Assembly: GCA_963851265.1 (NCBI GenBank)
Contig: CAWKNZ010000004.1
Coordinates: 1-64,000 of the forward strand
Source: an uncultured Gemmatimonadales bacterium
GTDB taxonomy: Bacteria; Gemmatimonadota; Gemmatimonadetes; Gemmatimonadales; Gemmatimonadaceae
Reading direction: 5' to 3'
Length of the DNA stretch: 64,000 bases
Positions 1 to 64,000 of the stretch are shown here, in pieces. Position numbers and translations under genes: made by a program. The number at the start of each line of letters is the position of its first letter. The stretch's first letter is position 1. The notes beneath the pieces were generated by a model that saw only the letters and a list, made by a program, of their open reading frames with translations, did no database searches and was not told where the DNA came from.

Positions 1-1319
1 CGCGGGCCCACGAGCGACATGTCGCCGCGTACCACGTTCCACAGCTGCGGCAGTTCGTCGAGCGACGTGCGGCGCAGCAACGCGCCGAACGGCGTCACAC
101 GCGGGTCGCGGGCGATCTTGAACACCGGCCCGCCCGCCTCGTTTTGTGATTCGAGCGCCGCTTGCCGCTGCTCCGCGTCGACGACCATCGTGCGGAACTT
201 GTACATGCGGAAGTGGCGCTTGCGATACCCGTAGCGGTGCTGCGCGAAGAGGATCGGGCCCGGACTCGACATCCGGACGCAGAGCGCGATCACGAGCAGA
301 ACCGGCGACAGCAATACGAGCCCCGCGGCCGCGCCGACGATGTCGACCGCCCGTTTGGCGACGAGGCGCCAATCGTCGACGACGACGTGCATCGACACCG
401 CGGGGAACTGACCACTCGTACCCGAGCGCGCGCGGGCGACCTTGGGAGCGACGGGATCGGCGAGAAATCGCGCGTGCACGCCGGCCTGCTCGCAGGTCGT
501 GAGCACCGTCTCGATCTCATCGTACCGCGAGCGCACGGGGAGGGCGACGAACACCTCGTCGACGACCGTGTGCATCATGAACGTCGCGAGCCGGTCGACC
601 GCCACACCCAACGCGCCGCCGAATGACGCTCCGCACAGCGCTTCCGGAACGTCCGTGACGGCGACGAGGCGATACTCCACCGTGGGATCGTCGCGCAGCT
701 GCGTCCACAGCGCGCGCGCGCGCGGGCCGGTCCCGGCGACGACGACGTGAATCGGGCCACCGCGGCGGAGCCGAATCGTCGCGCGCGCGGCGAGTCGCAC
801 CGCCGCCGTTCCAACGACGAGTCCACACCAGACGAGGACGACGACCGCCGCACGTAAGTGTCCGCTGTCCGTCACCCACGGCAGCAGGACGGCGGGAACC
901 GCGGCGAGCGTACAGCCGCCGAGCGTGTTCGCCACGAGCTCGCGGAAGGTCGGCGAGCGGGCGGCGTCGTAGCCCCCGGTTAGGCGCAGCGCGGCGGATG
1001 CCCACGCCAGCAGCGCGGCCACGAAAAGGCCATTCCGCACGCTGATGCGCAGCGAGAAGAACTCCGCCGCGCCGCGCGGCAGCTGCACGCCTTCCATCAG
1101 CACGACGCACGCGAACAGCACGGCGAGCGTCATCGCGACGTCGACACCGGGCGTCCACGTCGCGAGCCACAAGCCAGGGGCCTCCTCGGAACCGCTGCCG
1201 GTGGTGTCCCACGCGCCGACAGCGGCCGCCGCACGTCGGTCCGGGTGGGCGACACGCGGCTGTGCGTAAGAGTCGACCGGCTCCGGCCGCCGCTCGGGCG
1301 CCGTCTCAATCAACTGCAT
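1..1319 (-). CDS. Polyprenyl-phosphate sugar phosphotransferase (WcaJ/ExoY-like priming glycosyltransferase), 3' end runs off window
   Basis: Manual translation of minus strand: MQLIETAPE..., N-terminal hydrophobic segments, then FRMYKFRTM...[41 protein letters not shown] (Bac_transf motifs); GGAG upstream of ATG at 1319. Absent from ORF track because no stop in window. Confidence 0.9.
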   Translation of the reverse strand, partial: [439 protein letters not shown]

Positions 1320-1773
1320 GTCGCATCTCCAAACGACTCGGGAAGGCGGGAGTCGTCGCTATACGGGACCGGGTGGGGAGGTCCCAAGACATGGTCGCGC
1401 GTGTTGTGGGAGTACCGCGGCGCATGCCGAACGCGCGATTATTGTATAAGTGCTTCTTAATCGTCGCGCGTGGCCTGCGACAAACATCCTATTACGTCCG
1501 CGTCACGAGCACAATACCGATCTGACGCTGTTTTTTGCCAGCACCGACAGGCAGCGTTCCTGTTGCAGTCACGATCGCGTGCACCGTCGACAACGTAGCA
1601 GTTCTGTTACGCTGCCATGTACCGGGCTGGCACCTGCGCTCGTGTTGTATCGCGGCCCTTCCCCACCGTTCTCCGCTGCGACGCGGCCGAACGATCGCTG
1701 CGGTGGGGAGGGTCTTCTCGCGCAATCCATGCGCGAGGAAGCTCCGGTCATCCGCGCGACCGACCCGCGCTCC

Positions 1774-2928
1774 TCACCGACGTTCGCCAGCCGGGAAACC
1801 CGCGAACACGGTCGGTTCGCCTCCTGCGGGCTCGGCCCGCTCCCCCGCCCCCACCTCCACCCCCTCATCCACCACCCCCCGCACCACCCGCCCCCCCGCC
1901 CGCACCACCACCCCGTCCAGCAGCACGCTCTCCCGCACCTCCGCCCCCGCCTCCACCACCACCCCCGGCCCGAGCACCGACCGCTCCACCACCCCCGCCA
2001 CCGTCGCCCCCGGCGACACCAGCGCGTCGTCCACCCGCGCCGTCCGCGCGATCCGCGCCGGCATCCGCACCACGCTCGCCGTCCGCACCGGCCACGCCGG
2101 GTCGTCGACCACCAGCGCCGGCGCGTCGCCTAACAGATCCATGTGCCCGCGCCAGTAACTCTCCACCGTGCCCACGTCGCGCCAGTAGCCCGCGTGCGCG
2201 AACGCCCGCGCGCCGCCCTCCGCGACCAGCGCCGGCACCAGGTGGTCGCCGAAGTCGCCCAGGTGCGCGTCGTCGCCGCCCGCGCGCGTCACGTCCGCGT
2301 GCAGCCGCTCGAGCGTGGCCAGCAGGTGCGGCACGTCGTACACGAACACCTCCGTCGCCGCCGTCGTCCCCTCCGGCCGCTCCGGCTTCGACGCGAAGCG
2401 CGTCACGCGCCCGTCCGCCCCCACCCCGACGATGCCGAACCGGTGCGCCTCCGCGGCCGCCACCTCGGTCGTCACCACGGTGAGCCGCGCCGACGCGTCG
2501 CGGTGCGCGTCCAGCACGTCGCGCAGGTCGATCCGCTCCACGTGGTCGGCGCTCATCACCACGAGCTGGTCCGCCGCGAACTCCCGCATCAACGCGCGCG
2601 ACCGCCACAGCACGTCCGCGTTCCCCTCGGCGAACCCCTCGCCCTCCGCGCCCGTGAACGGCGGCAGCACGCGCAGGCCGCCCACGTTGCGGTCGAGGTC
2701 CCACGGGCGCCCGTTCAACAGATGGTCGTTGAGCGCGTGCGGCTGGTACTGCTCCACCACCCACACGTCACTCAGCCCGCTGTGGACGCAGTTGCTGAGC
2801 GCGAAGTCGATCAGCCGGTAGACGCCGGCGAAGGAAAGCGCGGGCTTCGCGCGGTGCGCGGTGAGGGGGCCGAGTCGGGAACCCTTGCCGCCGGCGAGGA
2901 CGAGGGCGAGAACTTTGGGGCGTCGCAT
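1774..2928 (-). CDS. glgC: Glucose-1-phosphate adenylyltransferase family protein
   Basis: VLAGGKGSRL, RAKPA, YRLIDFALSNC, YWRDVGT motifs and C-terminal hexapeptide repeats; start placed at MRRPK. Confidence 0.85.
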   Translation of the reverse strand: MRRPKVLALVLAGGKGSRLGPLTAHRAKPALSFAGVYRLIDFALSNCVHSGLSDVWVVEQYQPHALNDHLLNGRPWDLDRNVGGLRVLPPFTGAEGEGFAEGNADVLWRSRALMREFAADQLVVMSADHVERIDLRDVLDAHRDASARLTVVTTEVAAAEAHRFGIVGVGADGRVTRFASKPERPEGTTAATEVFVYDVPHLLATLERLHADVTRAGGDDAHLGDFGDHLVPALVAEGGARAFAHAGYWRDVGTVESYWRGHMDLLGDAPALVVDDPAWPVRTASVVRMPARIARTARVDDALVSPGATVAGVVERSVLGPGVVVEAGAEVRESVLLDGVVVRAGGRVVRGVVDEGVEVGAGERAEPAGGEPTVFAGFPAGERR

Positions 2929-3056
2929 GCCCCCGCCATCGCAAGGCACTTGCCCGACGCACGACGCCCCCGGCCGGATGGTGCGGCCGAGGGCGTCACG
3001 TTACAGCACGTACAAAAGCGGCTCACGCCGGCGGTGGCGCCGGCACGCCGCGGGCC

Positions 3057-8381: not shown

Positions 8382-9605
8382 TTACGCGCTCGCCGCGTGG
8401 GGCGGCTCGTGCGGCGGCCCGTGGGGGGGCTCGTACGACGCGTCGACCCACACGCCGCCCGCGGCCGCGCTCCGCACGGAGGCCAGCAGGAAGTGCACCC
8501 CGCGCGCGCCGTCCTGGACGGTCGGGAAGTCGAGATCGAGCGGGTCGGGCGCCTCGCCGGCGCGCCGCGCGCGCATCGTGCGCATGGCGTTGGCGTACAC
8601 GTTCGCGAAGGCCTCGAGGAACCCCTCGGGGTGCCCCGCCGGGATGCGCGCCGCGCGCTGCGCCGCGGGCGCGAGGTAGGGCTGCGCGCGCGTCCACCGC
8701 TCGGCGGGGGCGTCGGGACGCCGCACCCACAGCTCGTTGCAGCTCGCGTGCGTCCACAGCACCGAGGCGCGCTCGCCGTACACGCGCAGCGTGAGCGCGT
8801 TCTCCTCCCCGCTCGACACCTGCGAGCAGAGCAGCACGCCGCGCGCGCCGCCGCGGAAGCGGAGCAGCATGTTGGCGTCGTCCTCGAGTGCGCGCCCGGG
8901 CACGAAGGTCGTGAATTCGGCGCAGAGCGATTCCAACTCCAACCCCGTCACGTAGCGCACGAGGTGCTCGGCGTGCGTGCCGATGTCGCCCACCGCGCCC
9001 GCCGCCCCGGCCCGCGCGGGGTCCGTGCGCCACTCGGCCTGCTTGGACCCCGCCTGCTCGGCGGCCGTGCCGAGCCAGTCCTGGGCGTACTCGACGACGA
9101 CCTTGCGGATGGGACCGAGCACGCCGGCGGCGACGAGGGCGCGGGCCTGCTTGACCATCGGGTAGCCGGCGTAGTTGTGCGTCAGCGCGAACGTCGCGCC
9201 GCGCGCCGCCTCCTGCTGCGCGACGAGGCGGCAGAGCGACTCCGCGTCCTCGAGGGTGGTCGTGAGCGGCTTGTCGCACACCACGTCGAAGCCGCGCTCG
9301 AGAAAGGCGCGCGCCACGGGGTAGTGCAGGTGGTTAGGCGTGACGATGCTCACAAAGTCCAGCCGATCGTCGGCGGGCCGGTCGGCCTCGGCGTCGGCCA
9401 TGCGCGCCCAGCCGTCGTAGGTGCGCTCGGGCGAGAGGCCGAGTTCGGCCCCCTGCGCGCGGGAGCGGGCGGCGTCCGAGGCGAACGCGCCGCCGACGAG
9501 GTCGGCGAGTCCGTCGAGGGCGGCGGCGCGGCGGTGGACGGCGCCGATGAACGCGCCGGGGCCGCCGCCGATCATGCCGTAGCGGAGTTTGCGGGTGGGG
9601 GGCAC
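8382..9605 (-). CDS. Gfo/Idh/MocA family NAD-dependent oxidoreductase
   Basis: [36 protein letters not shown]; start GTG at 9605 uncertain. Confidence 0.88.
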
Positions 9606-11137: not shown

Positions 11138-12037
11138 ATGACGATCCCCGACACCTCCGCCGCGCCCGCCACCTCCGGCTCCGCGAACGGCGCCTCCCGC
11201 CGTGACTTCCTCCGCACCGCGGCCGCGGCGGCGGCCGGCGCCCTCGTGCTGCCGTTAGGCGCGGCCGCGGCGGTCGCCGCCCCGGCGCGCGCCGCCGCGC
11301 ACGTGCCCGGCATCCAGCTCTACACCGTGCGCACGCTCATGCAGCGCGACTTCGACGGCACGCTCGCCGCGCTCGCGAAGATGGGCTACAAGGAGTTCGA
11401 GTTCGCCGGCTACTACGGGCGCGACCCGCGCGCGCTGCGCCGCCAGCTCGACGGCCTCGGGGTGACGACGCCGAGCGCGCACATCCCGCTCGAGACGCTG
11501 CGCAACGGGCTCGGGCCCGCGCTCGACGCGGCGGCCGTGCTCGGCCACCAGTACATCGTCTGCCCCTACGTCGTCGACGCCGACCGCACGCCGGACAGCT
11601 TCGCGCGCATCGCGGACGACCTCGGGCGCATCGGGCGCGAGACCAAGGCGCGCGGGATGCAGCTCGCCTACCACAACCACGACTTCGAGTTCAAGGCGAT
11701 GCCGGACGGCCAGCTGCCGTACGACATGCTGCTGGCGCGCACCGACCCGTCGCTCGTGAAGATGGAGGTCGACCTGTACTGGATGACCTACGCGGGGCAG
11801 GACGCGATCAAGTACATCACCGCCCACCCCGAGCGCTTCCCGCTCTGCCACGTGAAGGATCTGAGCCGCGCGGGCGGGACGGCGCACATGGCCGACGTGG
11901 GCCAGGGCTCGATCGACTTCAAGTCCATCTTCGCGCGCGCGCAGTTCCAGCACTACTTCGTCGAGCGCGACGATACCACCGACCCGCTGACCAGCGCGCG
12001 GGTGAGCGAGCAGGCGCTGAAGGCGCTGCTCGCGTGA
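11138..12037 (+). CDS. Tat-exported sugar phosphate isomerase/epimerase TIM-barrel protein
   Basis: SRRDFL Tat motif; GIQLYTVR, YHNHDFEF, EVDLYW, HVKD, FVERD. Confidence 0.88.
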   Translation: MTIPDTSAAPATSGSANGASRRDFLRTAAAAAAGALVLPLGAAAAVAAPARAAAHVPGIQLYTVRTLMQRDFDGTLAALAKMGYKEFEFAGYYGRDPRALRRQLDGLGVTTPSAHIPLETLRNGLGPALDAAAVLGHQYIVCPYVVDADRTPDSFARIADDLGRIGRETKARGMQLAYHNHDFEFKAMPDGQLPYDMLLARTDPSLVKMEVDLYWMTYAGQDAIKYITAHPERFPLCHVKDLSRAGGTAHMADVGQGSIDFKSIFARAQFQHYFVERDDTTDPLTSARVSEQALKALLA

Positions 12038-12905: not shown

Positions 12906-13715
12906 TCACGGCAGCTCGCGCACCCACATGTTGCGGAAGCTGATCGGCGGGCTCGGGTCGGGGTGCGCCTGGAGCTTGATGGGCGACGGGCCGTGCGCGG
13001 TGTAGGCGGGCACGCCGTCGTTCACCGTCTCGCCGCGCACGGCGACGTGGTTCTGCACGAGCGCGCCGTTGTGGTAGGCCGTCACGTACGCCGGCGACTT
13101 GAGCGAGCCGTCGGCGTTGAAGGTCGGCGCCGTCCACACCACGTCGTAACCCTGCCACTCGCCGGGCGGGCGCATGGCGTTGACGAGCGGTGCGTACTGC
13201 TTGTAGACGCTCGCCGCCTGCCCGTTGACGTAGGTCGGGTTCTGGTACGAGTCCATGATCTGCAGCTCGTAGCCCGCGTCGCCCTTGCCGGTCGAGGCCA
13301 GGAACACGCCGCTGTTGCCGCGCAGCTGCCCGGTGCCGGTGATGCCGGCCGGCACGCGCCACTCCAGGTGCAGCTGGTAGTTGGTGAACCGGCGCGTCGT
13401 CTGGATGTTGCCCGCGGACTTGACGACGGTCACGACGCCGTCGGCGACCGTCCAGCCGGCCGGGCCGGCGGTCGCGACGTTGGCCCACTGCGCGAGGTCG
13501 TGCCCGTCGAAGAGCACCGCCGCGTCGGACGGGGGCGGCGTCAGCAGGCCGGCGCCGGGCGCGGGGGTCACCACCGGCGGGACCGGGGCGTAGACCTCGG
13601 CCACCGCAGCGTTAGGCGCGACGGTGCCGTCGGGGTGCCGGGCGCAGGCGGCGAGGGCGGCGGCCCCCGCGAGCACGGGCGCGAGCACGGGCGGGAGGAG
13701 GAACGAACGGCGCAT
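12906..13715 (-). CDS. DUF1080 lipoprotein, close paralog of 5543..6364
   Basis: Lipobox LAAC; same DUF1080 motifs; near-identical DNA blocks to the first copy. Confidence 0.87.
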   Translation of the reverse strand: MRRSFLLPPVLAPVLAGAAALAACARHPDGTVAPNAAVAEVYAPVPPVVTPAPGAGLLTPPPSDAAVLFDGHDLAQWANVATAGPAGWTVADGVVTVVKSAGNIQTTRRFTNYQLHLEWRVPAGITGTGQLRGNSGVFLASTGKGDAGYELQIMDSYQNPTYVNGQAASVYKQYAPLVNAMRPPGEWQGYDVVWTAPTFNADGSLKSPAYVTAYHNGALVQNHVAVRGETVNDGVPAYTAHGPSPIKLQAHPDPSPPISFRNMWVRELP

Positions 13716-15584: not shown

Positions 15585-16318
15585 GCGACGAATCGGTCAC
15601 CCCGAAGGGCGTCTCGCGCCGCGACGCGCTCCGCACGTTAGGCCTGGCCGCGGGCGGCGTCGCGGCGGCGGGCGCGGCCGGCGCGGCGGCCTGCACGACC
15701 GACGCAACGCCGAAGGGGTCGGGCGCCGCGCCCGCGGGCGCGGCCGGGTCGGGCGCGGCCGGGTCGGGCGCGGCCGGGTCGGGCGCGGCCGACGCGGGCG
15801 GCGCCGCGAAGACCTACTTCACGCCGCACGAGCGCGAGACGGTGGGCGCGCTGGTCGATTACATCATCCCGCGCGACGAACGCTCGGGGAGCGCCACCGA
15901 CGCGGGGGTGCCGGCGTGGATGGACGCGTTCCTCGCCCACCCCGACACCGAGGACAACTTCCGCCTCGCGATCCGCGGCGGGCTGGCCTGGCTGGACGCC
16001 GAGACGCTGCGGCGCACGGGCGTGACCTTCGCACGCGCGACCGACGCGGCGCGGCGGGCGGTGCTCGACGACATCGCCTACCCCGCACGCGCGCGCCCCG
16101 CGATGAGCCAGGGCGTCGCCTTCTTCAACCACTTCCGCGACTTCACCGCGTCGGGATTCTTCTCGAGTCAGATGGGGCAGAAGGATCTGCAGTACGAGGG
16201 CAACGTCGCCGTGCCGGTGTGGGACGGCTGCCCGCCGGCGGCGCTGGCGAAGCTCGGGGTGAGCTACGACCTGATGGCGACGCGGGTGGCGCCGCAGACC
16301 GGGGGGGCGCGGGCCTGA
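15581..16318 (+). CDS. Gluconate 2-dehydrogenase subunit 3 family (Tat hitchhiker subunit)
   Basis: SRRDALR Tat motif; DYIIP...SATDAGV, FFNHFRDFTASGFFSS; ATGA overlap with GMC gene. Confidence 0.85.
   Translation: MSDESVTPKGVSRRDALRTLGLAAGGVAAAGAAGAAACTTDATPKGSGAAPAGAAGSGAAGSGAAGSGAADAGGAAKTYFTPHERETVGALVDYIIPRDERSGSATDAGVPAWMDAFLAHPDTEDNFRLAIRGGLAWLDAETLRRTGVTFARATDAARRAVLDDIAYPARARPAMSQGVAFFNHFRDFTASGFFSSQMGQKDLQYEGNVAVPVWDGCPPAALAKLGVSYDLMATRVAPQTGGARA
15736..15790. repeat. In-frame 15-bp tandem repeat (GAAGS linker x~3.7)
   Basis: GGGCGCGGCCGGGTC at 15736, 15751, 15766, partial 15781. Confidence 0.9.
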
Positions 16319-20476: not shown

Positions 20477-21198
20477 GCGTCGCCCCCCGCCGCGGCCGCG
20501 GGGCGCATCGCCTCGCGGAGCTTGAGCAGTCCCGTGCGGATGCGCGTCTTGACGGTGCCTAACGGCTGGCCGAGCGCGGCGGCGACGTCGGCGTGCGAGA
20601 GCCCGCCGAAGAAGGCCAGCTCGATCGCGCGGCGCTGCGGCTCGGGCAGCGCGGCGAGCGAGCCGCGCACCGCGCGCGCCGCCTCCGCGCGCTCCACCGC
20701 CGCGTCGGGCGCCTCGGGGCTCCCGCCTAACGGGACGGCGGTGGCGGCCGTGCCGGCCGGCGCGAGCGCGGCCGCGTCGCCGGCGGCGCGCTCCTCCAGG
20801 CGTACGCGGCGGCGCCGCGCGCGCACGTGGTCGAGCGCCCGGGCGCGGGTCACCATCGTCACCCACGCGGCCACGCTTCCGCGCGCCGCGTCGTAGCGCG
20901 CCGCGGTGCGCCAGAGCTGCGCGAACACCGCGGCCGTCACGTCGTCGGCCTCGTCGGCCGCCCCGCCGACCAGCACGCGGGCGAAGCGGTGCGCGTCGGC
21001 GCCGAACCGGTCGTACAGGGTGCCGAGCGCCTCGGCGTCGCCGGCCGCGACGCGCGCCACGAGGGCCGCGTCCGCCGTCGGGCCGGCCGCCGCGTCGGAC
21101 GGTGCAACGCCGCCGCCCGCGAGGTCGGCTTGCGTGACGGGCGGCGGAGGATCGTCCACACGGACCGGAACGGGTTGGAGCGCGGGGCGATCGGTCAC
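20473..21198 (-). CDS. ECF sigma-70 factor (SigK-like)
   Basis: GDAEALGTLYDR, LWRTAARYD..RGS, LPEPQRRAIELAFFGGLSH, PLGTVKTRIR; start uncertain (GTG 21198 or 21159). Confidence 0.87.
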   Translation of the reverse strand: MTDRPALQPVPVRVDDPPPPVTQADLAGGGVAPSDAAAGPTADAALVARVAAGDAEALGTLYDRFGADAHRFARVLVGGAADEADDVTAAVFAQLWRTAARYDAARGSVAAWVTMVTRARALDHVRARRRRVRLEERAAGDAAALAPAGTAATAVPLGGSPEAPDAAVERAEAARAVRGSLAALPEPQRRAIELAFFGGLSHADVAAALGQPLGTVKTRIRTGLLKLREAMRPAAAAGGDA

Positions 21199-24953: not shown

Positions 24954-24977
24954 GGCGGGCTCCCGGGTGTGGGGTCA

Positions 24978-25119: not shown

Positions 25120-25264
25120 GGCGCGCGCCCGAACACGGACCGAAGGGGGAGGGCGGCCGGCGACCCCCGCGGGGGTCGCGCGCCGACGACGCTCCAGCGG
25201 CGCGCCTACACCCCGCCGGGCGCGCGCCTACAGCCCGCGCGCCGGCCCGCCGACACTCCCGGCG

Positions 25265-47616: not shown

Positions 47617-48607
47617 AGAGCAGCGCGGTGTTGACGGCGAGCAGCGCGAGCGCGGTGGGCGCCTGCGCGCGGATCACGGCCCAGTCGCCGCGCAGGCCGA
47701 GCAGCGCGACGGGGACGACGTTGAAGTTGGCCGCCATGGGCGTGCAGAGCGTGCCGCAGAACCCCGACAACATGCCTAACGCGGCGACGGGGGCCGGGTC
47801 GGCGCCGAAGCGGCCGACGAGCACCGGCAGCCCCACGGCGAGCAGCATCACGGGAAACGCCGCGAACGCGTTGCCGAGCACCGCGGTGAACAGCGCCATC
47901 CCGACCGTGTAGGCGGCGACGGCGGCGAGGGGGACGCCGAGCGGCACGACGCCGCCGACGAGCCCGGCGACCGCGCGCCCCACGCCGGCGGACGCGAACA
48001 CCGCGCCGAGCGCGGCGAGGGCCTGCGGCAGCACGGCGGGCCACCCGACGGCGTCCATGAGCCGGCGCGTCTCGCGGGCGGGCGCGCCGGCGCCCGGGCG
48101 CAGCAGCGCGAGCGCCGCCCCGAGCCCGGCGAGCGCGCCCGTGCCTAACGCGACGAGGGTGGCCTGCTTGGGGTCGACCAGCGGCGCGCCGCCCGCGCGC
48201 AGGCGGGGGAACGCCCAGGTGCCAGCGACCGTGACCGCGGGCACGAGGAGCGCGGGCAGGAACAGCCGGTTGCCGGCGCGCGGGTGCTCGGCACGCCGGG
48301 CCTCGGCGTGTCGGGGCGCGGCACTTCGGGGCTCGCGCGCCGGGGCGGGCGGCGACGCGGGCGCGTCGGGCACGGCGGCGTCTCGCGGGCGGGCGAACCC
48401 GACGCCCGCGAGCACGCCGAGCGCGATCAGCACGGCCCCCGCGCCAACGTCGCCCAGCCGCCGGCCGGCGAGGAAGGTGAGCGACCACAGCCCCCAGAAT
48501 GCCGCCGCGCGCCAGCGCCGCGGGTGCCCGGCGTCGCGCGCGTTGATCACCGCCACCGCCGCGGTGAGCGCGCCCATGAGCGTGTAGACGAAGCCGAGCC
48601 CGATCAC
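47594..48607 (-). CDS. DUF979 membrane protein (putative 5-oxoproline transporter subunit)
   Basis: GNRLFLPAL, LPQALAALG, GNAFAAFPV, GFCGTLCTPMAANFN. Confidence 0.87.
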   Translation of the reverse strand: MIGLGFVYTLMGALTAAVAVINARDAGHPRRWRAAAFWGLWSLTFLAGRRLGDVGAGAVLIALGVLAGVGFARPRDAAVPDAPASPPAPAREPRSAAPRHAEARRAEHPRAGNRLFLPALLVPAVTVAGTWAFPRLRAGGAPLVDPKQATLVALGTGALAGLGAALALLRPGAGAPARETRRLMDAVGWPAVLPQALAALGAVFASAGVGRAVAGLVGGVVPLGVPLAAVAAYTVGMALFTAVLGNAFAAFPVMLLAVGLPVLVGRFGADPAPVAALGMLSGFCGTLCTPMAANFNVVPVALLGLRGDWAVIRAQAPTALALLAVNTALLYACIPRR

Positions 48608-49384: not shown

Positions 49385-49816
49385 ATGCCCGCGACCATGT
49401 CCGCCTCCGCCGACGCCACCGCCCGCCACGTCCGCTGGGAGGACCTGCAGAAGGAGCAGGTCACCCCGCAGCTCGCCCGCCGCCTCGTCACGAGCGAGCG
49501 CATGATGCTCGCCCAGGTGTACCTCGAGGCGGGGTGCGTGGTCCCGAAGCACTCGCACGAGAACGAGCAGATCACCTGGATCGTCGAGGGCGCGCTCCGC
49601 TTCCACCTCGGCGAGCACGGCGAGCAGGAGGTGGTCGTGCGCGCGGGCGAGGTGCTCGTCATCCCCTCGCACCTGCCGCACACCGCCGAGGCGCTCGAGG
49701 ACACGCTCGACGTCGACATCTTCTGCCCGCCGCGGGCCGACTGGCTGAACGGGACCGACACGTACTTCCACCAGACGACCCCCCACCAGGCCGCCCCCCC
49801 GGCGGCCGGGCGTTAG
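49385..49816 (+). CDS. Cupin domain protein
   Basis: PKHSHENEQ...G, IPSHLPH, DIFCPPR. Confidence 0.87.
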   Translation: MPATMSASADATARHVRWEDLQKEQVTPQLARRLVTSERMMLAQVYLEAGCVVPKHSHENEQITWIVEGALRFHLGEHGEQEVVVRAGEVLVIPSHLPHTAEALEDTLDVDIFCPPRADWLNGTDTYFHQTTPHQAAPPAAGR

Positions 49817-49832
49817 GCGCGGGCCCGGCGCG

Positions 49833-51029
49833 ATGACCACCGCCGCCGCCCCCGCGCCCGCCGCCCCCGCCGCGCGCCTCGCCCTGCTCTCGGGCGAGGG
49901 CGCGCTCGACGTCTTCCGCCGCGCGCAGGAGGTGGAGCGCGCGGGGCGTTCGGTCATCCACCTCGAGCTGGGCGCGCCCGACGTGGATGCCCCGCCGCAC
50001 GTCGTCGACGCCGCGGTGCGCGCGCTCCGCGCGGGCGACGCGCGCTACGTCGCGCCGCAGGGCCTGCCCGAGTTGCGCGAGGCGATCGCGGCCGACCTGC
50101 GCTCGCGCGGCGTCGACGCCGGCGCCGACCGCGTGGTCGTGACGCCGAGCGCCAAGACGGCCGTGTTCTACGCGCTCCTCGCGACGGTGGGCCCCGGCGA
50201 CGAGGTGCTCGTCCCCGACCCGGGGTTCCCGATCTACGCCTCGATGGTCCGCTTCGCGGGCGGGGTGCCGGTGGGCTACGCGCACGACGCCGACGGCGCG
50301 CCCGACCTCGACGACGTCGTGGCGCGCGTGACGCCGCGCACGCGCGCGCTCGCGCTCAACTCACCGGGCAACCCCACCGGCGGCGCGTTGGGCGAGGCCG
50401 GGCTCGCGCGGCTCGCGGAGCTGGCGCGGCGGCACGACCTCGTGCTCGTCGCCGACGACATCTACTCGCGGCTCGTGTACGAGGGCGCCCGGGCGCCGAG
50501 CGCGGCCGCGTTCGCGCCCGAGCGCACGCTGCTCGTCGACGGGTTCTCGAAGACGTACGCGATGACCGGCTACCGGCTCGGCTACCTCGTCGCGCCGGCC
50601 GCGTGGACCGAGCGGCTGGTGACGCTCGCGATCAACGGGCACACGTGCGTGCCGCCGTTCGTGCAGCGCGCGGGGGTCGCGGCGCTGGAGGGGCCGCAGG
50701 ACGTGGTCGCGTCGCAGGTGGCGGCCTACCGCGCCCGGCGCGACCTGCTGGTCGGCGCGCTCGGCGCGATCCCGGGCGTGCGCTGCGCGACGCCGGCCGG
50801 CGCGTTCTACGTGTTCCCCGACTTCTCGGGCGCGCTCGCGCCGCGCGGGGTGACCTCGCGCGCGTTCGCCGCGCGGCTGCTCGAGGCGCACGGCGTGGCG
50901 GCGATCGACGGCGCCACGTTCGGCCCGCGCGGCGAGGGGCACCTGCGCTTCTCGTTCGCCTCGGCGCAGTCGGACCTCGACGCCGCGGTCGCGCGGGTGC
51001 GCGCCGCGGTGGAATCGTTAGGCGCGTGA
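49833..51029 (+). CDS. PLP-dependent aminotransferase class I/II
   Basis: NSPGNPTG, DDIY, DGFSKTYAMTGYRLG, GAFY, LRFSFA. Confidence 0.92.
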   Translation: MTTAAAPAPAAPAARLALLSGEGALDVFRRAQEVERAGRSVIHLELGAPDVDAPPHVVDAAVRALRAGDARYVAPQGLPELREAIAADLRSRGVDAGADRVVVTPSAKTAVFYALLATVGPGDEVLVPDPGFPIYASMVRFAGGVPVGYAHDADGAPDLDDVVARVTPRTRALALNSPGNPTGGALGEAGLARLAELARRHDLVLVADDIYSRLVYEGARAPSAAAFAPERTLLVDGFSKTYAMTGYRLGYLVAPAAWTERLVTLAINGHTCVPPFVQRAGVAALEGPQDVVASQVAAYRARRDLLVGALGAIPGVRCATPAGAFYVFPDFSGALAPRGVTSRAFAARLLEAHGVAAIDGATFGPRGEGHLRFSFASAQSDLDAAVARVRAAVESLGA

Positions 51030-52867: not shown

Positions 52868-52897
52868 CCGCGGAGCACGGGGCGCGCGGGGGCGGCG

Positions 52898-53743
52898 TTA
52901 GGCGCCGCCCCCGTCGCCCTCCGCCGCGAGCCGCGCGTCGAGGTCGGCCCGCAGCGCCGCCGCCCGCTCGGCGGGCAGCACGCGCGGCTCGGGGTCGATC
53001 GCCTCGAGCGCGCGCACCAGCACCCCGGCCACGAGGTAGTTCCGCAGCTTCTTGCTGTCGGCCGGCACCACGTACCACGGAGCGCGCGCGGTGCTCGTCT
53101 TCCGCAGCACGTCGCGGTAGGCGCGCGTGTACTCGTCCCATCGCGCGCGGTCGTCGAGGTCCCCGGCGTTGTACTTGTACTGCTTGGCAGGCTCGTCGAG
53201 CCGCGCGCGCAACCGCTGCGCCTGCTCCGCGCGCGAGACGTGCAGGAACAGCTTGACCACGGCCGTCCCCTCGTCGTCCAGCATCCGCTCGAACTCGACG
53301 ATGTGCCGGTAACGCCGCGACCACACCGCCTCGGGCGCGAGCTTGCGCACGCGCACCGCGAGCACGTCCTCGTAATACGAGCGGTTGAAGATGCCGACCG
53401 TGCCCCGCGGCGGACACGCGACGTGCGCGCGCCACAGGAAGTCGTGCCGCGCCTCCGCGCCCACCGGCACGCCGAACCCGGTCACCTGGCACGCCTGCGG
53501 GTTGAGGCCGCTGAACACGTGGCGCACCGTGCCGTCCTTGCCGCCGGCGTCGCGCGCCTGGAGCACCACGAGGAGCGCGCGGCCGCCGTCCGCGATCAGG
53601 CGCGCGTGCAGCTCGGCCAACCGCTCGAGCCGCTCGGCGCTCGCACTGGCGAGCGCCGGTCCGTGCGGCGCGCCGGCCGGGGGCGCGGCTTCCGCGTCGG
53701 CGAGTGCCGGAACGTCATCGGGGTCGACCGCACGGACGTGCAT
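52898..53743 (-). CDS. ppk2: Polyphosphate kinase 2 family (class III-like)
   Basis: QARDAGGKDG Walker A, HDFLWR, FNRSYYEDVL, APWYVVPADSK. Confidence 0.9.
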   Translation of the reverse strand: MHVRAVDPDDVPALADAEAAPPAGAPHGPALASASAERLERLAELHARLIADGGRALLVVLQARDAGGKDGTVRHVFSGLNPQACQVTGFGVPVGAEARHDFLWRAHVACPPRGTVGIFNRSYYEDVLAVRVRKLAPEAVWSRRYRHIVEFERMLDDEGTAVVKLFLHVSRAEQAQRLRARLDEPAKQYKYNAGDLDDRARWDEYTRAYRDVLRKTSTARAPWYVVPADSKKLRNYLVAGVLVRALEAIDPEPRVLPAERAAALRADLDARLAAEGDGGGA

Positions 53744-56417: not shown

Positions 56418-57712
56418 GCGCCCGCCCCCGCCGCGGCGCCCACCGCCGACGGCAGCTCGCCCCCGGCGGCGAACACCCGCGCCACCACCGAACGCCCGAG
56501 CGCGTAGGGCAGCTCGCGCCAGTCGCCCGCGTCCAGCACGAGCAGGTCGGCGCGCGCGCCGGGCCCGAGCCACCCGCGGTCGGCGAGGCCTAACGCGGCG
56601 GCCGCGTTGGCGGTGGCCGCGACGAGCGTCTCGGCGGGGGTGAGGCGGTTGAGGCGTACGGCGAGGGCCATCGCGAGGGCGGGTGAGAAGAGGGGGCTCG
56701 ACCCGGGGTTGCAATCGGTCCCGACCGCGACGGCCGCGCCGGCGTCCACGAGGGCGCGCGCGGGCGCGGGCGGCAGGCCGAGGTGGAGCGTCACGCCGGG
56801 AAGCACCGTCGCGACCGTAGACGCGGCAGCGAGCGCCGCCACCTGCGCCGGCCCCGACGCTTCGAGGTGGTCGACGGAGCGCGCGCGGTGACGCACGGCG
56901 AGTTCGACGCCGCCCACCGCGTGAAACTGGTCGGCGTGCAGCGTGACCGCGAGTCCGTGCGCGCGCGCCGCCGCGAGCATCGCATCGGCCTCGCCCAAGG
57001 TGAACGCCTCGCGCTCGACGAACACGTCGACCGCGGACGCGAGGCCGCGTCGCGCCACCTCGGGCACGAGCGATCGGACCACCGCCGCGACGTAGGCCGC
57101 GCGCTCCGCGCCGTCCGCCGGGGGCAGGTGGACAAGCAGCGTGGCGACGACCGCCGGTCTCCCGGGCGCGGCCGCGTCCGACGGTCCGCTCAGGCGCGCG
57201 ATCGCCTCGAGCGACCGCAGCTCCGCGTCGGGCGCGAAGCCGTAGCCCGACTTCACCTCGACCGTCGTCGCGCCCTCGCGCGCGAGCGCGGCGAGCCGGG
57301 GCCGTGCCGCGTCGACGAGCGCGTCGACGCCCGCCGCCGCGGTCTCGCGCACGGTGTGGCGGATGCCGCCGCCGCGCGCGAGGATGGCCTCGTACGCGAC
57401 CCCCGCCGCGCGCGCGTCGAAGTCGGCGAGCCGGTCTCCCGCCCACACGAGATGCGTGTGCGGGTCGACGAGCCCGGGCACGACGGCCGCACCGCCGGCG
57501 TCCACGGTGACGCGCGCCTCGCCGCGCCAGTCGCGGGCTGGGCCGGCGTAGGTCACGCGGCCGTCACGGACGGCGAGCACGGCGTCGGGCACGATGCGGA
57601 GCGCGCGCTGGGACGCGCCGCGGTGCGGGCCGGGGCCGAACGGCGTGGCGAGCTGGCCGACGCCGGCGACGAGGAGGTCGGCGGCCGGCGGACGAGACGA
57701 TGGGTCGCTCAC
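56414..57712 (-). CDS. hutI: Imidazolonepropionase
   Basis: [39 protein letters not shown]. Confidence 0.93.
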
Positions 57713-59053: not shown

Positions 59054-60739
<1,686 letters not shown>

Positions 60740-60997: not shown

Positions 60998-61043
60998 CGC
61001 TCCTCCAAGGGTAGGCGGCTGCCGAGAAAGCTACTCGCCCGCC

Positions 61044-62918
61044 TCACGGCAGCGCCAACACCTCCACGTTCGACGGCGCCGCGGGCGTGTGCGCGACGCG
61101 GTGCGTCTGGGCGCGGTAGTCCTCCGCCCGCGCGTGGAAGATGTTGGGCACGAAGGTCTGCGGGTTGCGGTCGTAGAGCGGGAACCACGAGCTCTGCACC
61201 TGCACCATGATCCGGTGTCCCGCCTTGAACGTGTACGCCTGCTGGTGCAGGTCGACCGTGTACGCGAGCATCGCGTTAGGCGCGAGCGGCGCGGGGTGCT
61301 CGCGGCTCTGGCGGTAGCGCCCGCGCGTGATCTCGCTCGCCACCATCAGCTCGTAGCCGCCCATCGCCGGCCGGTCGGCGACCGAGTCGGGGTAGACGTC
61401 GATCAGCTTCACCACCCAGTCGGCGTCGGTGCCCGTGGTCGACGCGAACAGGTGGGCGGTGACGTCGCCGGCCACCGTCATGTCGTGGTCCAGCCGCCCC
61501 GTCGACCACGACAGCACGTCGGGGCGACCCTCGACGAAGCGCTGGTCCTCGGTGCGCCAGCGCGTCCAGCGCGAGCCCCGCGGGTCGTACTCCCACTCGA
61601 CCGGGCGCGGGCGGTAGGGCACCGGGTGCGCCGGGTCGCTGACGAACGCGTCGGCGGCCTCGCTCGCCGCGGGGGCGGCGAGCGAGAGCGCGCCGCCCGC
61701 GCGCAGGTAGAGCTTCACGGGCCGCGCGCCCGCGGCCGGCCAGCGGTCGTACGTCCGCCACCGCCGCGCACCCGCGTCGTACACCGTCGCCTCGGCGAAC
61801 CGGCCGTCCCCCGTCCCGCGCAGGTAGTGGGCGAACCACTTCGCCTCGACGTCGCGCCGGAACTCCGCGGCCGTGGGCTCGCCGAAGTGGACGTTGCCTA
61901 ACGAGTCGCCCGCCTCGATGAACCACTCGCCGTGGTACCACGGCCCGAGCACGACGTGGTTGATGTGCGCCGAATCCGTGCGCTCGAGCGCGCGGTAGGT
62001 CGCCTGCGGGCCGTACACGTCCTCCTGGTCCCAGAACCCGCCCACGGTGAGCGTCGGGACGGTGGTGTGCGTGAGCACCCGCGTCACGGACCGCGCCTGC
62101 CACGTGGTGTCGTACGCCGGGTGCGCGGCGAACATCCGCCAGCTCGGCCACCGCTCAGCGCCGATCGAGCGGCCGAGCGCGGCGAGGGTGGGGTACGAGC
62201 GGTACCACTCGTAGGTGTCGTAGCGCGCGGGCGCGGGGACCACGCTCTCGTCGCTGCTCGCCTCCATCTGCCAGGCGTACTCCAGCCCCACCGACAGCCG
62301 GAACGCGCCGTTGTGGAAGAAGTCGTCGCCGATCCAGCCGTCGCCCATCGTGGCCTGCGGGCTCACCGCCTTGAGCGCGGGGTGCGGGTCGATGGTCGCC
62401 ATGTTGGTCAGCCACCCGGGGTACGAGATCCCCAGCTCGCCCACGCGCCCGTTGTTGCCCGGCACGTGTTTCACGAGCCAGTCGATGGTGTCGTAGGCGT
62501 CGGTGCTCTCGTCGATCGCCTTCGGGTCGCGGTGGTCCTGGGGCGGGTGGTTCATCACGTACGCGCCCTCGCTCTGGTGCCGGCCGCGGATGTCCTGGAA
62601 CGCGAAGATGTAGCCGTCGGCCATCAGCTCGCGGAAGCCGTACAGGATGCCCGACGTGCCGCCCCAGTTGTTGGTGCCGTAGGGCGTGCGCGAGAGGATG
62701 ATCGGCAGTGCGCCGGGCGCGGGCGCGTGCCGCGGCGTGAGGACCACGGTGAACAGGCGCACGCCGTCCCGCATGGGGACCATCACCTCCTGCCGCGTGA
62801 ACGCCGAGTCGAGCGCGGCGCGCTCGGCGGTCGGCGCCTGCGCGTGGGCGGAGCGGGACGCGGGGGCGACGAGGGCGGCGACGAGGGCGAGCGCGGAGAG
62901 GGAGCGAAAGGCGCGCAT
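61044..62918 (-). CDS. CocE/NonD family serine hydrolase (alpha-amino acid ester hydrolase-like), secreted
   Basis: Signal peptide; MRDGVRL, RTPY, DIRGR..SEG, GISYPG nucleophile motif, GPWYHG, QSSWFPLYDRNPQ. Confidence 0.92.
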   Translation of the reverse strand: MRAFRSLSALALVAALVAPASRSAHAQAPTAERAALDSAFTRQEVMVPMRDGVRLFTVVLTPRHAPAPGALPIILSRTPYGTNNWGGTSGILYGFRELMADGYIFAFQDIRGRHQSEGAYVMNHPPQDHRDPKAIDESTDAYDTIDWLVKHVPGNNGRVGELGISYPGWLTNMATIDPHPALKAVSPQATMGDGWIGDDFFHNGAFRLSVGLEYAWQMEASSDESVVPAPARYDTYEWYRSYPTLAALGRSIGAERWPSWRMFAAHPAYDTTWQARSVTRVLTHTTVPTLTVGGFWDQEDVYGPQATYRALERTDSAHINHVVLGPWYHGEWFIEAGDSLGNVHFGEPTAAEFRRDVEAKWFAHYLRGTGDGRFAEATVYDAGARRWRTYDRWPAAGARPVKLYLRAGGALSLAAPAASEAADAFVSDPAHPVPYRPRPVEWEYDPRGSRWTRWRTEDQRFVEGRPDVLSWSTGRLDHDMTVAGDVTAHLFASTTGTDADWVVKLIDVYPDSVADRPAMGGYELMVASEITRGRYRQSREHPAPLAPNAMLAYTVDLHQQAYTFKAGHRIMVQVQSSWFPLYDRNPQTFVPNIFHARAEDYRAQTHRVAHTPAAPSNVEVLALP

Positions 62919-62957
62919 GGATGGGGGGCGGTGAGGAGGGCGTGGTGCGCCGGGCCG

Positions 62958-63171
62958 TGAACGGCCGGGGATCGGTGCTGACCGAACGCCGAGGCCGGGG
63001 ATGAACCTGCGGGGATTCTACAGCCGGGGATACGACCGCAGGGGCGATACGGCCGCGGGTAGGGACGGTCTGGCCGTTGCCCTTTCCAGCGTCGTCGCCC
63101 CTCCCGTCCTATCGTCAATCAGCACGAATCCCCAGCCGTCTCATCCCCGGGGCGTTCATCCCCGGCCCGTT
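62958..63171. repeat. Structured intergenic element with direct CGGGGAT and inverted ATCCCC(G) repeats
   Basis: CGGGGAT at 62966, 62996, 63010, 63025; inverted at 63128, 63143, 63158; 13-bp IR 62994-63006 / 63154-63166. Confidence 0.7.
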
Positions 63172-64000
63172 ACGGCCCCCCGCGCGACACCCCGCCAGGC
63201 GATGTGCCCCCCGCGCTCCCCGCGGCCAAAAACGCCCCGATCTTCTCGTTCAAGAACCTCCCGTCCTCCGGATTGCTCGCCGCCCCTGCCGTGTGCCCCC
63301 AGAGCGACGGGATCGGCGCGAACGTCACGCGCGGGATGAACGCCTGCTCGTACCGCGCGTCGCCTAACGGAAAGTACAGGTCCGTCTCGGACGGCATGTA
63401 GAGGAAGGGCACGCGGATCGACCGCAGCGCGCGCTCGACGTCGCCGCCCATCCCCGGCGTGGCGCCGACGTCGTGGTGCTCCCAGGTCCGCATCTGGAGG
63501 ATCAGGTCGTTCGCGTCGGCGCCGGGGATGAAGTGCAGGCGGTAGTTGTCGATCACCTGCATGAGGGTGGTTCCCGCCGGGGCGCCCGCCTTCCAGAGCC
63601 CGCGCCGCCACCACTCCTGCGAGTACAGCCACCCGGTCCACACCACCGCGAACGCCTGGAGCCCCTTCTCCGGGGGCGCCGTGTAGTCCCCGCCGTTGAA
63701 CGTCGCGTCGGCCGCGATCGCGGCGATCTGCCCCTCCAGCCGCACCACGCCGTGCGGGTACGTCTTGGCCGTGCCCGACGTGGCGACCGCGCGGTCCATG
63801 AAGTCCGGATAACTCACCGCCCACTGGAACGCCTGCTGCGCGCCCATCGAGAAGCCGACCACCGCCCGGAGGTGCGTCACGCCTAACGAATCGACGAGCA
63901 GCCGGTGCACCGCCTCGACGTTGTCGCGGATCGTCGTCACCGGGAACCGCGGCCCGTGGAACGGCTCGGGCGTGTTGCTCGGCGACGACGAGTGCCCGTT
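63170..64000 (-). CDS. Alpha/beta hydrolase, homoserine O-acetyltransferase-like (5' end outside window)
   Basis: NGHSSSPSN, TIRDNV, VGFSMGAQQA, DANDL, TDLYF, WGH. Confidence 0.85.
   Translation of the reverse strand, partial: NGHSSSPSNTPEPFHGPRFPVTTIRDNVEAVHRLLVDSLGVTHLRAVVGFSMGAQQAFQWAVSYPDFMDRAVATSGTAKTYPHGVVRLEGQIAAIAADATFNGGDYTAPPEKGLQAFAVVWTGWLYSQEWWRRGLWKAGAPAGTTLMQVIDNYRLHFIPGADANDLILQMRTWEHHDVGATPGMGGDVERALRSIRVPFLYMPSETDLYFPLGDARYEQAFIPRVTFAPIPSLWGHTAGAASNPEDGRFLNEKIGAFLAAGSAGGTSPGGVSRGGP

Follow-up and report, generated by a model that had tools for sequence, protein, structure and literature searches.

A GTTAGGC word dispersed through some Gemmatimonadales genomes is a DNA-level target with the letters of an integron attC arm

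Why should one short word recur all along the DNA of a soil bacterium, and what is it that is being favoured, the protein, the codon or the DNA itself? The question arises from the window, the whole stretch of 64,000 nt analysed here, which belongs to the genome called G000. The original prediction had counted 27 copies of GTTAGGC or its complement GCCTAAC (the 7-mer), with 21 of them extending to CGTTAGGC (the 8-mer). We recovered the same 27 coordinates exactly, against 2.44 expected from dinucleotide shuffles (sd 1.58, maximum 8 in 100), and again 21 extensions, against 1.20 (maximum 4 in 100). The one-mismatch variant GTTGGGC, also claimed to be frequent, was found 31 times in the window vs. 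9.2 expected. We have called rich those genomes with a GTTAGGC count above the control (13 of 41 relatives) and poor the remaining 28. The copies of the window, with frames assigned from gene calls made in this analysis and, for some, the state in other genomes, are as follows.

979..985, plus strand: GTTAGGC, antisense CGC-CTA-ACC (Leu-Thr) in a minus-strand gene
2128..2134, minus strand: GTTAGGC, sense CTG-TTA-GGC in a nucleotidyl transferase gene
9333..9339, plus strand: GTTAGGC, antisense ACG-CCT-AAC (Pro-Asn) in a GFO/IDH/MocA oxidoreductase gene; G004 orthologue GTTGGGC
11253..11260, plus strand: CGTTAGGC, sense CCG-TTA-GGC; CGCTCGGC in G004
13610..13617, plus strand: CGTTAGGC, antisense GCG-CCT-AAC in a 3-keto-disaccharide hydrolase gene
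15636..15643, plus strand: CGTTAGGC, sense ACG-TTA-GGC
17759..17766, plus strand: CGTTAGGC, sense GCG-TTA-GGC; CGCTCGGC in G004
20557..20564, minus strand: CGTTAGGC, sense CCG-TTA-GGC in an ECF sigma factor gene
20725..20732, minus strand: CGTTAGGC, sense CCG-TTA-GGC in the same ECF sigma factor gene, 168 bp from the previous copy
25051..25057, minus strand: GTTAGGC, the sole intergenic copy, adjoining four GCCCAAC repeats; kept in G004
26418..26425, minus strand: CGTTAGGC, sense GCG-TTA-GGC in a PmbA/TldD peptidase gene
28714..28721, minus strand: CGTTAGGC, sense GCG-TTA-GGC
38259..38266, minus strand: CGTTAGGC, sense GCG-TTA-GGC in a TonB-dependent receptor-like gene
39009..39015, minus strand: GTTAGGC, sense CAG-TTA-GGC in the same receptor-like gene; kept in G004
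43191..43198, plus strand: CGTTAGGC, sense CCG-TTA-GGC in a PmbA/TldD gene; kept in G004
47774..47781, minus strand: CGTTAGGC, sense GCG-TTA-GGC in a DUF979 gene
48143..48150, minus strand: CGTTAGGC, sense GCG-TTA-GGC in the same DUF979 gene; kept in G004
49811..49818, plus strand: CGTTAGGC, supplying the TAG stop codon of a cupin gene; kept in G004
51016..51023, plus strand: CGTTAGGC, sense TCG-TTA-GGC near the end of an aminotransferase gene; kept in G004
52896..52903, plus strand: CGTTAGGC, its complement GCC-TAA-C supplying the TAA stop codon of a PPK2 gene
56588..56595, minus strand: CGTTAGGC, sense GCG-TTA-GGC in an amidohydrolase gene; kept in G004
60023..60029, minus strand: GTTAGGC, sense CTG-TTA-GGC in the urocanase gene; the same in G004, TTG in G003, CTG/CTC/GTS in poor relatives
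60374..60381, minus strand: CGTTAGGC, sense GCG-TTA-GGC in the urocanase gene; also in G003 and G004, and GCx-CTS-GGx in poor relatives with Ala-Leu-Gly
61274..61281, plus strand: CGTTAGGC, antisense GCG-CCT-AAC in an S15 peptidase gene; kept in G004
61896..61903, minus strand: CGTTAGGC, sense TCG-TTA-GGC in the same S15 peptidase gene; kept in G004
63362..63369, minus strand: CGTTAGGC, sense CCG-TTA-GGC; kept in G004
63881..63888, minus strand: CGTTAGGC, sense TCG-TTA-GGC; one-off GCCTAAT in G004

The gene calls bear out the frame spellings proposed from the letters, with 20 copies read as sense xxG-TTA-GGC, three as antisense CCT-AAC (9333, 13611, 61275), one as CTA-ACC (979) and two through stop codons (CGT-TAG at 49812 and GCC-TAA at 52897), besides the intergenic one at 25051. 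The codons involved had been described as otherwise avoided, and indeed 20 of the 21 in-frame TTA codons of the window lie inside GTTAGGC, and 993 of the 1,282 in the genome lie within G-TTA-GGC. Genome-wide, G000 contains 1,762 copies of GTTAGGC (885 on the plus and 877 on the minus strand) and 1,396 of CGTTAGGC, ca. 24 times the expectation; with 58 copies expected under a third-order Markov model, the 8-mer is the top outlier among all 8-mers. The base preceding the dispersed GTTAGGC is C in 79% and T in 14% of the cases. A codon-preserving null left the original prediction standing: in called ORFs the 7-mer was seen 1,133 times and the 8-mer 901 times, vs. 77.4 ± 9.6 and 42.5 ± 6.3 when synonymous codons were shuffled within genes. 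In matched contexts the enrichment was 30- to 100-fold in all usable frames and on both strands. Leu in xCG|Leu|GGC is written as TTA in 27% of the cases, whereas control contexts have 0.2 to 1.0%; Pro in xxG|Pro|AAC|G is written as CCT in 26% (control 0.6%) and Leu in xGC|Leu|ACG as CTA in 11% (control 0.2 to 0.3%), while GTT is 48% of the Val codons preceding AGG-C. Stop codons are also written within the word (109 TAA and 84 TAG genome-wide), and its density is higher in spacers (0.52 per kb) than in genes (0.36 per kb). The target is the word itself, neither codon nor peptide.

One might still ask whether protein motifs, codon usage, repeats or assembly error could have produced such an excess. 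The bases around GTTAGGC do have a phase-locked periodicity of 3, a point in favour of such an origin. However, the synonymous shuffle yields 15-fold fewer copies, the host genes are unrelated to each other, four coding frames, stop codons and spacers all carry the word, and the same word is the top outlier in genomes ranging from 62 to 74% GC. We consider this explanation refuted, with a negligible probability of being correct.

Orientation is irrelevant to the word. Plus-strand genes have 535 sense and 190 antisense copies, and minus-strand genes 515 and 189 (odds ratio 1.03); none of 17 segments of 300 kb deviated when an absolute-strand effect was sought, gene strand being allowed for. With ca. 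one copy per 3 kb, the word is an over-represented 8-mer as Chi is in E. coli, which would be in keeping with a polar signal of the Chi or KOPS type, acting in recombination or translocation. However, strand skew beyond gene direction was absent from the 17 segments and an antisense frame has the highest occupancy, which contradicts a polar signal and makes it highly improbable. Of the analogies put forward by the original prediction, Chi/KOPS therefore fails for lack of polarity and matS/NBS, which are few-site systems, does not match 1,762 copies; uptake sequences and HIP1 are the closest.

The word is also maintained. G000 and its congener G004 have 83% identity and keep A/T third positions in 15% of the cases, but 12 of 23 aligned word sites are kept, vs. 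35 of 869 (4%) phase-matched 7-mers whose middle codon ends in A/T. Of the 31 word sites in G004, 12 are in common with G000. The word is kept or regained far oftener than comparable rare-codon words, and gain and maintenance are ongoing in sister lineages. Along similar lines, in the urocanase genes of 30 genomes the word is confined to rich genomes, at lineage-specific columns, and has been written twice through an amino-acid change, DPAD to APND in G012 and APAE to APNE in G003. This synonymous and non-synonymous writing in orthologues, together with the enrichment in all frames, in stops and in spacers, upholds the earlier claim of selection or drive on the DNA word as such. In favour of a tie to recombination, 4-kb bins in which G000 and G004 agree more often at third positions also have more sites (rho 0.58 over 89 bins; partial r 0.29 with GC3 controlled), a correlation from a single genome pair and confounded by GC3 (rho 0.74 between identity and GC3). 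Word occupancy climbs from 9% to 24% with gene GC3.

The distribution among genomes is patchy. Counts above the control were found in 10 of 251 genomes of the phylum sample and in none of the 81 genomes of other families in the phylum. The identical word was found in G012, G040 and G008, and no substitute word was found in the poor G006 and G014. The same word recurs across scattered genera of one order, Gemmatimonadales by its named relatives.

The spacing of the copies is far from random. We compared the gaps in G000 with sites placed randomly among synonymous opportunities (300 permutations) and found 46 gaps of <200 bp, out of 1,750, vs. 136 ± 10 (minimum 112), and 133 of <400 bp vs. 256 ± 13 (minimum 216). 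Ca. 8 pairs fold like attC (in C10, C6, C9 and C11). Close opposite-strand pairs number 19, several of them being attC sites, and inverted pairs are scarce in spacers. G012 behaves likewise (16 gaps of <100 bp vs. 47 expected, coefficient of variation 0.82). Copies repel each other within 400 bp, and the benefit saturates over short distances.

The reading that we favour, with a probability of ca. 45%, is a recombination-coupled self tag like DUS or USS. In Neisseria and Haemophilus self tags are used in DNA uptake; DUS and USS are family-wide, with dialects between genera, and in Neisseriaceae DUS is read by the minor pilin ComP. By analogy, the DNA-level signal (C/T)GTTAGGC would be read in either orientation by a protein recognizing it in double- or single-stranded form, and native DNA would keep gaining copies under a standing directional force. 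Most likely this would be a recombination-coupled drive as described for DUS in Neisseriaceae and USS in Pasteurellaceae, in which fragments bearing the word are preferentially taken up or recombined and word alleles therefore replace word-less ones, the replacement continuing up to ca. one copy per 0.7 to 3 kb. We infer that the reader would be part of the DNA-uptake or recombination machinery. The likeness to DUS and USS (see also PMC1939737 and PMC3868556) extends to a short exact word at ca. 0.4 to 1.4 per kb, equally on both strands, found in spacers, at gene ends and, in defiance of codon habit, in several frames inside genes, with over-even spacing, orthologous sites in common but with turnover, and an enriched one-off variant. 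Against the self tag, the phylum is a different one, the spread is patchy at the genus level, the word is identical everywhere without dialects, inverted pairs are few, no reader appeared among the candidates, and repulsion and maintenance are also to be expected from other per-segment functions.

The machinery for uptake is there. ComEC, DprA and a ComEA-like HHH_3 domain were found in all five genomes tested, PilM in 37 of 41, and G000 has a pilus locus. However, competence and pilus genes are equally present in poor genomes and do not separate rich from poor. ComP_DUS (PF16732) was above the cut-off in no rich genome and in 1 of 41 overall, that one being poor, and an ORF of the pilus locus was present in 12 of 13 rich but also in 16 of 28 poor genomes. 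None of the reader candidates examined (ComP family, methyltransferase families, Vsr, pilus-locus ORF) tracks the word.

Some of the same evidence would also suit another orientation-blind DNA-binding system, such as a nucleoid or chromosome-organising protein or a self-marker for defence or repair, with selection placing ca. one site per kilobase. The repulsion below 400 bp with a roughly even spread and the strong maintenance between congeners point in this direction, and so do the longest word-free stretch (45 kb, C1:182,876-227,962), which contains gidA, parA, parB and mnmE, and another word-free gap of 15 kb around dnaA. However, the parB gap is unconserved, since G012 and G240 have the word at 1 kb or less from parB and in G004 the gap is just 7.8 kb. 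A function that the cell needs would also hardly be expected to be absent from most genera of the family. On balance we find it rather unlikely.

A methylation-linked mutational or repair drive, converting near-cognates site by site as in older HIP1 and very-short-patch repair models, appears very unlikely. HIP1 (GCGATCGC) is described in the available portions of its literature (PMC13756078; bioRxiv 10.1101/2024.09.10.611283) as hyper-abundant, uneven across cyanobacteria and a proposed transformation aid, and the hyper-abundance and patchy spread of our word recall it. Both are octamers hyper-abundant inside genes, quasi-periodic and uneven across a phylum, the function of HIP1 having long been obscure, and the enrichment of the one-off GTTGGGC (2.3-fold) would fit conversion. 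However, HIP1 is palindromic and recognised by two methylases, while the word here is asymmetric and no one-mismatch variant is clearly depleted. Among the families searched, neither a C5 methyltransferase (PF00145) nor Vsr (PF03852) turned up in any of five rich genomes, and PF01555 and PF02384 do not track the word, both being absent from G001, G002, G018, G036 and G040. Furthermore, site-independent conversion predicts no repulsion, and repulsion is strong. The NTS/SRM repeats offer another comparison, being genome-wide and read by dedicated Ssn single-strand nucleases that modulate transformation, according to the available text of PMC11893778. Unlike our word, they are hairpins of ca. 30 bp that lie in spacers and cluster near the reader gene, and no small stand-alone GIY-YIG gene was evident in five rich genomes.

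The letters themselves lead to integrons. The original prediction considered the word unrecognised; this does not apply to its letters, which are an instance of the integron core site GTTRRRY (PMC3053210, available portion) and of the local attC arm, but it does hold for the dispersal, for which our literature search found no counterpart. The attC hairpins of G000 read CGCCTAACG...CGTTAGGCG, and in the poor genome G027 21 of the 24 attC sites of one array end in CGTTAGGC, the opposite arm being mostly GCCTAAC-A. This pattern mirrors the C or T that precedes the dispersed word. The word is the arm (R box) of attC sites in Gemmatimonadales. Its reader could be an integron integrase or a recombinase related to it, with the dispersed copies serving, for example, as secondary (attG-like) sites; in a variant of this idea, a receptor for uptake or recombination would have been co-opted to the attC arm. 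The identity of letters with the core GTTRRRY and inverse core RYYYAAC, including the preceding base, would favour this, as would the enrichment only in the order whose cassette arrays use this arm and the lack of dialects, which fits a fixed template. However, the integrase exceeds the cut-off in 8 of 13 rich genomes and in 17 of 28 poor ones and does not track the word; the very rich G001 and G012 have it in fragmentary form, and in G000 intI is split by an inserted serine-recombinase gene. Core sites are paired in attC hairpins of cassette arrays, whereas here there are ca. 1,700 lone copies in housekeeping genes, without hairpin partners. GTTAGAC and GTTAGGT also fit GTTRRRY, yet they are not enriched. 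Integrase activity at secondary sites is described as costly (PMC10127599, available portion), and we found no route by which integration or excision would write the word. We therefore regard a functional tie to integrons, in either form, as decidedly improbable.

A bolder combination, which we consider unlikely, would join the self tag to these letters. A receptor would read the attC arm CGTTAGGC, so that the word would be a kin-recognition tag for DNA exchange in some Gemmatimonadales, with its letters taken from the integron, the arrays acting as natural uptake hot spots, and the tag spread outwards from them through the chromosome by recombination-coupled drive. If true, this attC-derived tag would be the first uptake-type tag outside Proteobacteria and would for the first time connect the specificity of uptake mechanistically with the exchange of integron cassettes.

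All 27 copies of GTTAGGC or its complement GCCTAAC listed in the original prediction were exact on recount, against 2.44 expected in the window, and 100 dinucleotide shuffles never gave more than 8. The longer word CGTTAGGC was again counted 21 times, where 1.20 copies would be expected by our estimate (the original one was about 2), and the one-off GTTGGGC, which had seemed frequent by eye, 31 times vs. 9.2 expected. In the whole source genome (G000, 12 contigs, 4.60 Mb, 73% GC), where the window is C4:1-64000, the 7-mer is present in 1,762 copies (885 plus, 877 minus), preceded by C in 79% and by T in 14% of the cases, and the 8-mer in 1,396 copies, 24 times the third-order Markov expectation and the top outlier among all 8-mers. 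The enrichment also stays under a codon-preserving null, a check named in the original prediction: with synonymous codons shuffled 20 times inside each of 2,526 called ORFs, the 7-mer was expected 77.4 ± 9.6 times and the 8-mer 42.5 ± 6.3 times, and 1,133 and 901 copies were observed. The word is a real and strong feature at the level of DNA.

Reading frames of the word (window copies by our own gene calls, with start positions; genome copies in G000). Frame counts are approximate, both gene sets coming from a crude caller of our own.
Sense strand, TTA-GGC (xxG-TTA-GGC): 20 in the window; 993 in the genome
Antisense strand, CCT-AAC: 3 in the window (9333, 13611, 61275); 199 in the genome
GC-CTA-AC (CTA-ACC in the window): 1 in the window (979); 72 in the genome
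Stop codon GT-TAG-GC: 1 in the window (49812, TAG); 84 in the genome
Stop codon GCC-TAA-C: 1 in the window (52897, TAA); 109 in the genome
GTT-AGG-C: 23 in the genome
Intergenic: 1 in the window (25051); 282 in the genome

Our gene calls place the CCT-AAC, CTA-ACC, TAG and TAA copies of the window in the frames originally read for them. The genes that carry the word are ordinary and unrelated (urocanase, PPK2, PmbA/TldD peptidases, an aminotransferase, an ECF sigma factor, a TonB-type receptor and others). The share of TTA codons falling inside the motif, also proposed as a check, was 20 of 21 in-frame TTA codons in the window and 993 of 1,282 (inside G-TTA-GGC) in the genome, the latter counted over another gene set (3,762 genes, spanning 88% of it). 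Word density is 0.52 per kb in spacers vs. 0.36 in genes. In matched contexts, TTA makes up 27% of the leucine codons in xCG-Leu-GGC vs. 0.2 to 1.0% in controls, CCT 26% of the proline codons in xxG-Pro-AAC-G vs. 0.6%, and CTA 11% of the leucine codons in xGC-Leu-ACG vs. 0.2 to 0.3%, while valine preceding AGG-C is GTT in 48% of the cases. Therefore, all usable frames on both strands are driven to a similar order of magnitude, which bears out the original idea of a force on the DNA word: the target is the word itself. A conversion of CTG alone to TTA was considered and rejected, as it relied on the wrong baseline; matched contexts show CTC and CTG both drained, the CTC share dropping from 85% in controls to 57% in the word context. 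Nor does a missing tRNA explain why the CTA frame is used less, as both tRNA-Leu(TAA) and tRNA-Leu(TAG) were found.

Chi and KOPS had been among the analogies offered originally, and these polar ones did not stand. The orientation of the word in G000 tracks gene strand and nothing further (sense/antisense 535/190 for genes on the plus strand, 515/189 for those on the minus strand), and no deviation was seen in any of 17 segments (300 kb each). GC skew is too weak for placing replichores, but a bias of the Chi or KOPS type would still appear within single segments, so that the lack of a deviating segment and of polarity counts against both. The copies are also spaced more evenly than by chance, with 46 gaps under 200 bp (136 ± 10 expected) and 133 under 400 bp (256 ± 13 expected), when equal numbers of sites were drawn at random among peptide-compatible positions (300 draws, minima 112 and 216, respectively). 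Spacing was alike in the relative G012 (16 gaps under 100 bp vs. 47 expected, coefficient of variation 0.82). Copies thus repel each other, as a benefit per DNA segment predicts; a force acting on each site independently, e.g., biased repair, predicts no repulsion. Among the few inverted pairs is a perfect hairpin at C2:116,117-116,146 of G000, GCCTAACGTAGCGCGC/GCGCGCTACGTTAGGC, made of two word copies. In the window, the spacer at 24,975-25,125 holds the palindrome TTAGGAATATTCCTAA between the near-words CGTTAGGA and TCCTAACG, and after these the intergenic word copy and four GCCCAAC units set in a degenerate repeat (11 to 24 bp).

The 8-mer exceeded its reversed-word control (“rich” genomes, the others being “poor”) in 13 of 41 relatives, which answers positively the earlier question of its presence in related genomes. 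The rich ones comprise all five genomes of the genus of G000 (727 to 2,415 copies), G012 (6,360 copies), G008, G017, G018 and G023, as well as G036, G038 and G040 from a different family. Sampling the phylum evenly (251 genomes) gave 7 of 54 in family f1, 3 of 113 in f2 (all three from the single genus g73), 0 of 3 in f3 and 0 of 81 in nine other families; the relative and phylum tallies take in four unpublished genomes (G011, G085, G124, G203), all word-poor, and no conclusion depends on them. The same 8-mer was the top outlier in samples of 170 to 260 kb from G012 (62.5% GC), G040 (72%) and G008 (63.5%). The idea that poor relatives use a substitute word, or dialect, was rejected for G006 (400 kb) and G014 (312 kb), in which no word stands out (top z of 11 vs. 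45 in a G000 sample of the same size).

When the urocanase genes of 30 genomes were compared, the word was found in rich genomes only. G000, its congener G004 and G003 have GCG-TTA-GGC in common where poor genomes with the same Ala-Leu-Gly have GCx-CTS-GGx, and a second site is TTA in G000 and G004 and TTG in G003. Two extra sites of G004 are absent elsewhere, and those of G012 are at other columns, one of them as GTT-AGG-C. Some sites arose through amino-acid changes, two in a G012 site (DPAD to APND) and one in a G003 site (APAE to APNE), and the stop in G012 and G040 reads CGT-TAG-GC. Over 57 kb aligned between G000 and G004 (83% identity, 72.5% at third positions, only 15% of A/T third positions kept), 12 of 23 aligned G000 sites were kept, compared with 35 of 869 (4%) phase-matched 7-mers whose middle codon ends in A/T and, for phase-matched 7-mers of any kind, 5,642 of 18,201 (31%). 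G004 has 31 sites within the aligned columns, 12 of them common to G000, and at unshared sites the counterpart genome mostly has common GC-rich synonyms. This retention, together with sites of each lineage's own, indicates that the force is active in both. The window urocanase (59,054-60,739) is itself 81% identical to that of G014, 78-84% to named Gemmatimonadales, Acidobacteriaceae and Deinococcus records, and just 62-66% to most other relatives in the order; the named records closest to it are metagenome bins that carry the label Gemmatimonadota, Gemmatimonadaceae or Gemmatimonadales. These identities suggest that it may be an exchanged gene variant.

Across 89 bins (4 kb each) aligned between G000 and G004, the number of sites correlates with identity at third positions (rho 0.58, identity computed without word positions; 0.46 after leaving out a 45-kb word-free stretch), a link confounded by GC3, which itself correlates with identity at rho 0.74 (partial correlations 0.29 for sites and identity given GC3, and 0.24 for sites and GC3 given identity). 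Genome-wide, the occupancy of matched contexts climbs from 9% in the lowest-GC3 genes to 24% in the highest, the opposite of rare-codon avoidance in strongly biased genes. Frequent homologous exchange would produce all three of low divergence, high GC3 and abundant word copies, which is suggestive only, and the pattern could equally stem from residence time or from other effects of the region. The 45-kb stretch, the largest without the word (C1:182,876-227,962), holds gidA, parA, parB, mnmE and other housekeeping genes, with lower GC3 (0.88-0.93), a third-position identity to G004 of just 0.59-0.69 and normal protein-level identity; the word is likewise sparse there in G001 and G004, but not in G012 and G240. 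An exclusion zone at parB or the origin was rejected, as it is not conserved in G012, G240 and G004, and so was an import specific to G000, since G001 and G004 are likewise more divergent from each other in this region. A 15-kb word-free gap (C1:2,107-17,073) with lower GC (0.678) includes dnaA (C1:12,048-12,530), and five others of 12-22 kb are within or near C2:1.0-1.2 Mb, where genes are nearly all plus-strand (80:6 and 82:4 kb per 100-kb bin).

The word had not been recognised as a described motif. We found no paper on it in Gemmatimonadota (the bare word matched primers only), nor one pairing “Gemmatimonad” with “uptake sequence”, but its letters fit the known integron core site GTTRRRY (inverse core RYYYAAC), as given in PMC3053210. 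Integrons have been reported in Gemmatimonadota (PMC8618304). In G000, integron cassettes are arrayed over C10:188-215 kb and over C6:1-3 kb; their attC hairpins measure 90-115 nt and read CGCCTAACG...CGTTAGGCG, and the array probably runs on from the end of C10 into C6, beside intI. This intI is split (C6:3,005-6,044, locus L127), its parts matching model positions 2-265 and 260-313, 2 kb apart, around a large serine recombinase gene on the opposite strand (Resolvase, Recombinase and Zn_ribbon_recom domains). In the poor genome G027, whose array has at least 24 cassettes, the right attC arm is CGTTAGGC in 21 of 24 attC sites and the left arm mostly GCCTAAC-A; attC arms therefore account for regularly spaced same-strand copies in poor genomes. 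The integron integrase was rejected as driver of the dispersed word: TIGR02249 passed its cut-off in 8 of the 13 rich and in 17 of the 28 poor genomes, without association with richness, and was fragmentary in G001 and G012. Lone words in G000 have no hairpin partner, and the GTTRRRY variants GTTAGAC and GTTAGGT are not enriched there. Integrase activity at secondary sites is described as harmful in PMC10127599. Letters identical to the attC arm, restriction to the order and the lack of dialects motivate a further, less probable reading as a tag with integron-derived letters.

The search for a putative protein recognising the word (“reader”) found none among the dozen or so hand-picked families, nor among the ORFs, that were tried. 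ComP_DUS (PF16732) was above cut-off in one of 41 genomes, a poor one, hence without association. Competence and pilus genes were rejected as discriminators, since they occur in rich and poor alike (ComEC, DprA and a ComEA-like domain in 5/5 genomes, three rich and two poor; PilM in 37/41). The methyltransferases PF01555 (18/41) and PF02384 (20/41) do not track the word, five rich genomes having neither; PF00145 and Vsr (PF03852) were found in none of five rich genomes, and a small GIY-YIG of Ssn type, a comparison drawn from PMC11893778, was not evident. Within the pilus locus of G000, a 292-aa ORF that was rich-specific in five genomes was rejected because it is in 12 of 13 rich but also 16 of 28 poor genomes overall, a 140-aa ORF because it was found only in G001 and G240, and the pilin because all five genomes have it.

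We consider the best reading to be a self tag coupled to recombination and akin to uptake sequences, with putative reader and function, and hold it tentatively at a probability of about 0.45. In abundance, lack of polarity, spread over frames, even spacing and turnover in orthologues the word is like the uptake sequences of Neisseriaceae (DUS) and Pasteurellaceae (USS); unlike these, it has a patchy genus-level spread and a single invariant form, and no ComP-type receptor was found. As an intragenic, quasi-periodic and phylogenetically uneven octamer it resembles the cyanobacterial HIP1, now proposed as a transformation aid (PMC13756078; bioRxiv 10.1101/2024.09.10.611283), but the G000 word is non-palindromic and no methyltransferase tracks it among the families tried. 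Since some genera have the word and their close relatives lack it, its reader should be findable by comparative genomics and its function testable by transformation.

To our knowledge, only two proteobacterial families have firmly established sequence-specific self tags that serve in DNA exchange. The word is a candidate for a third such system, independent of these, in a soil phylum that has received little study, and as its letters are those of the integron recombination core, there may be a link of DNA uptake with cassette exchange. In practical terms, it marks native DNA and exposes contigs that are foreign or mis-binned in metagenome bins of Gemmatimonadales.
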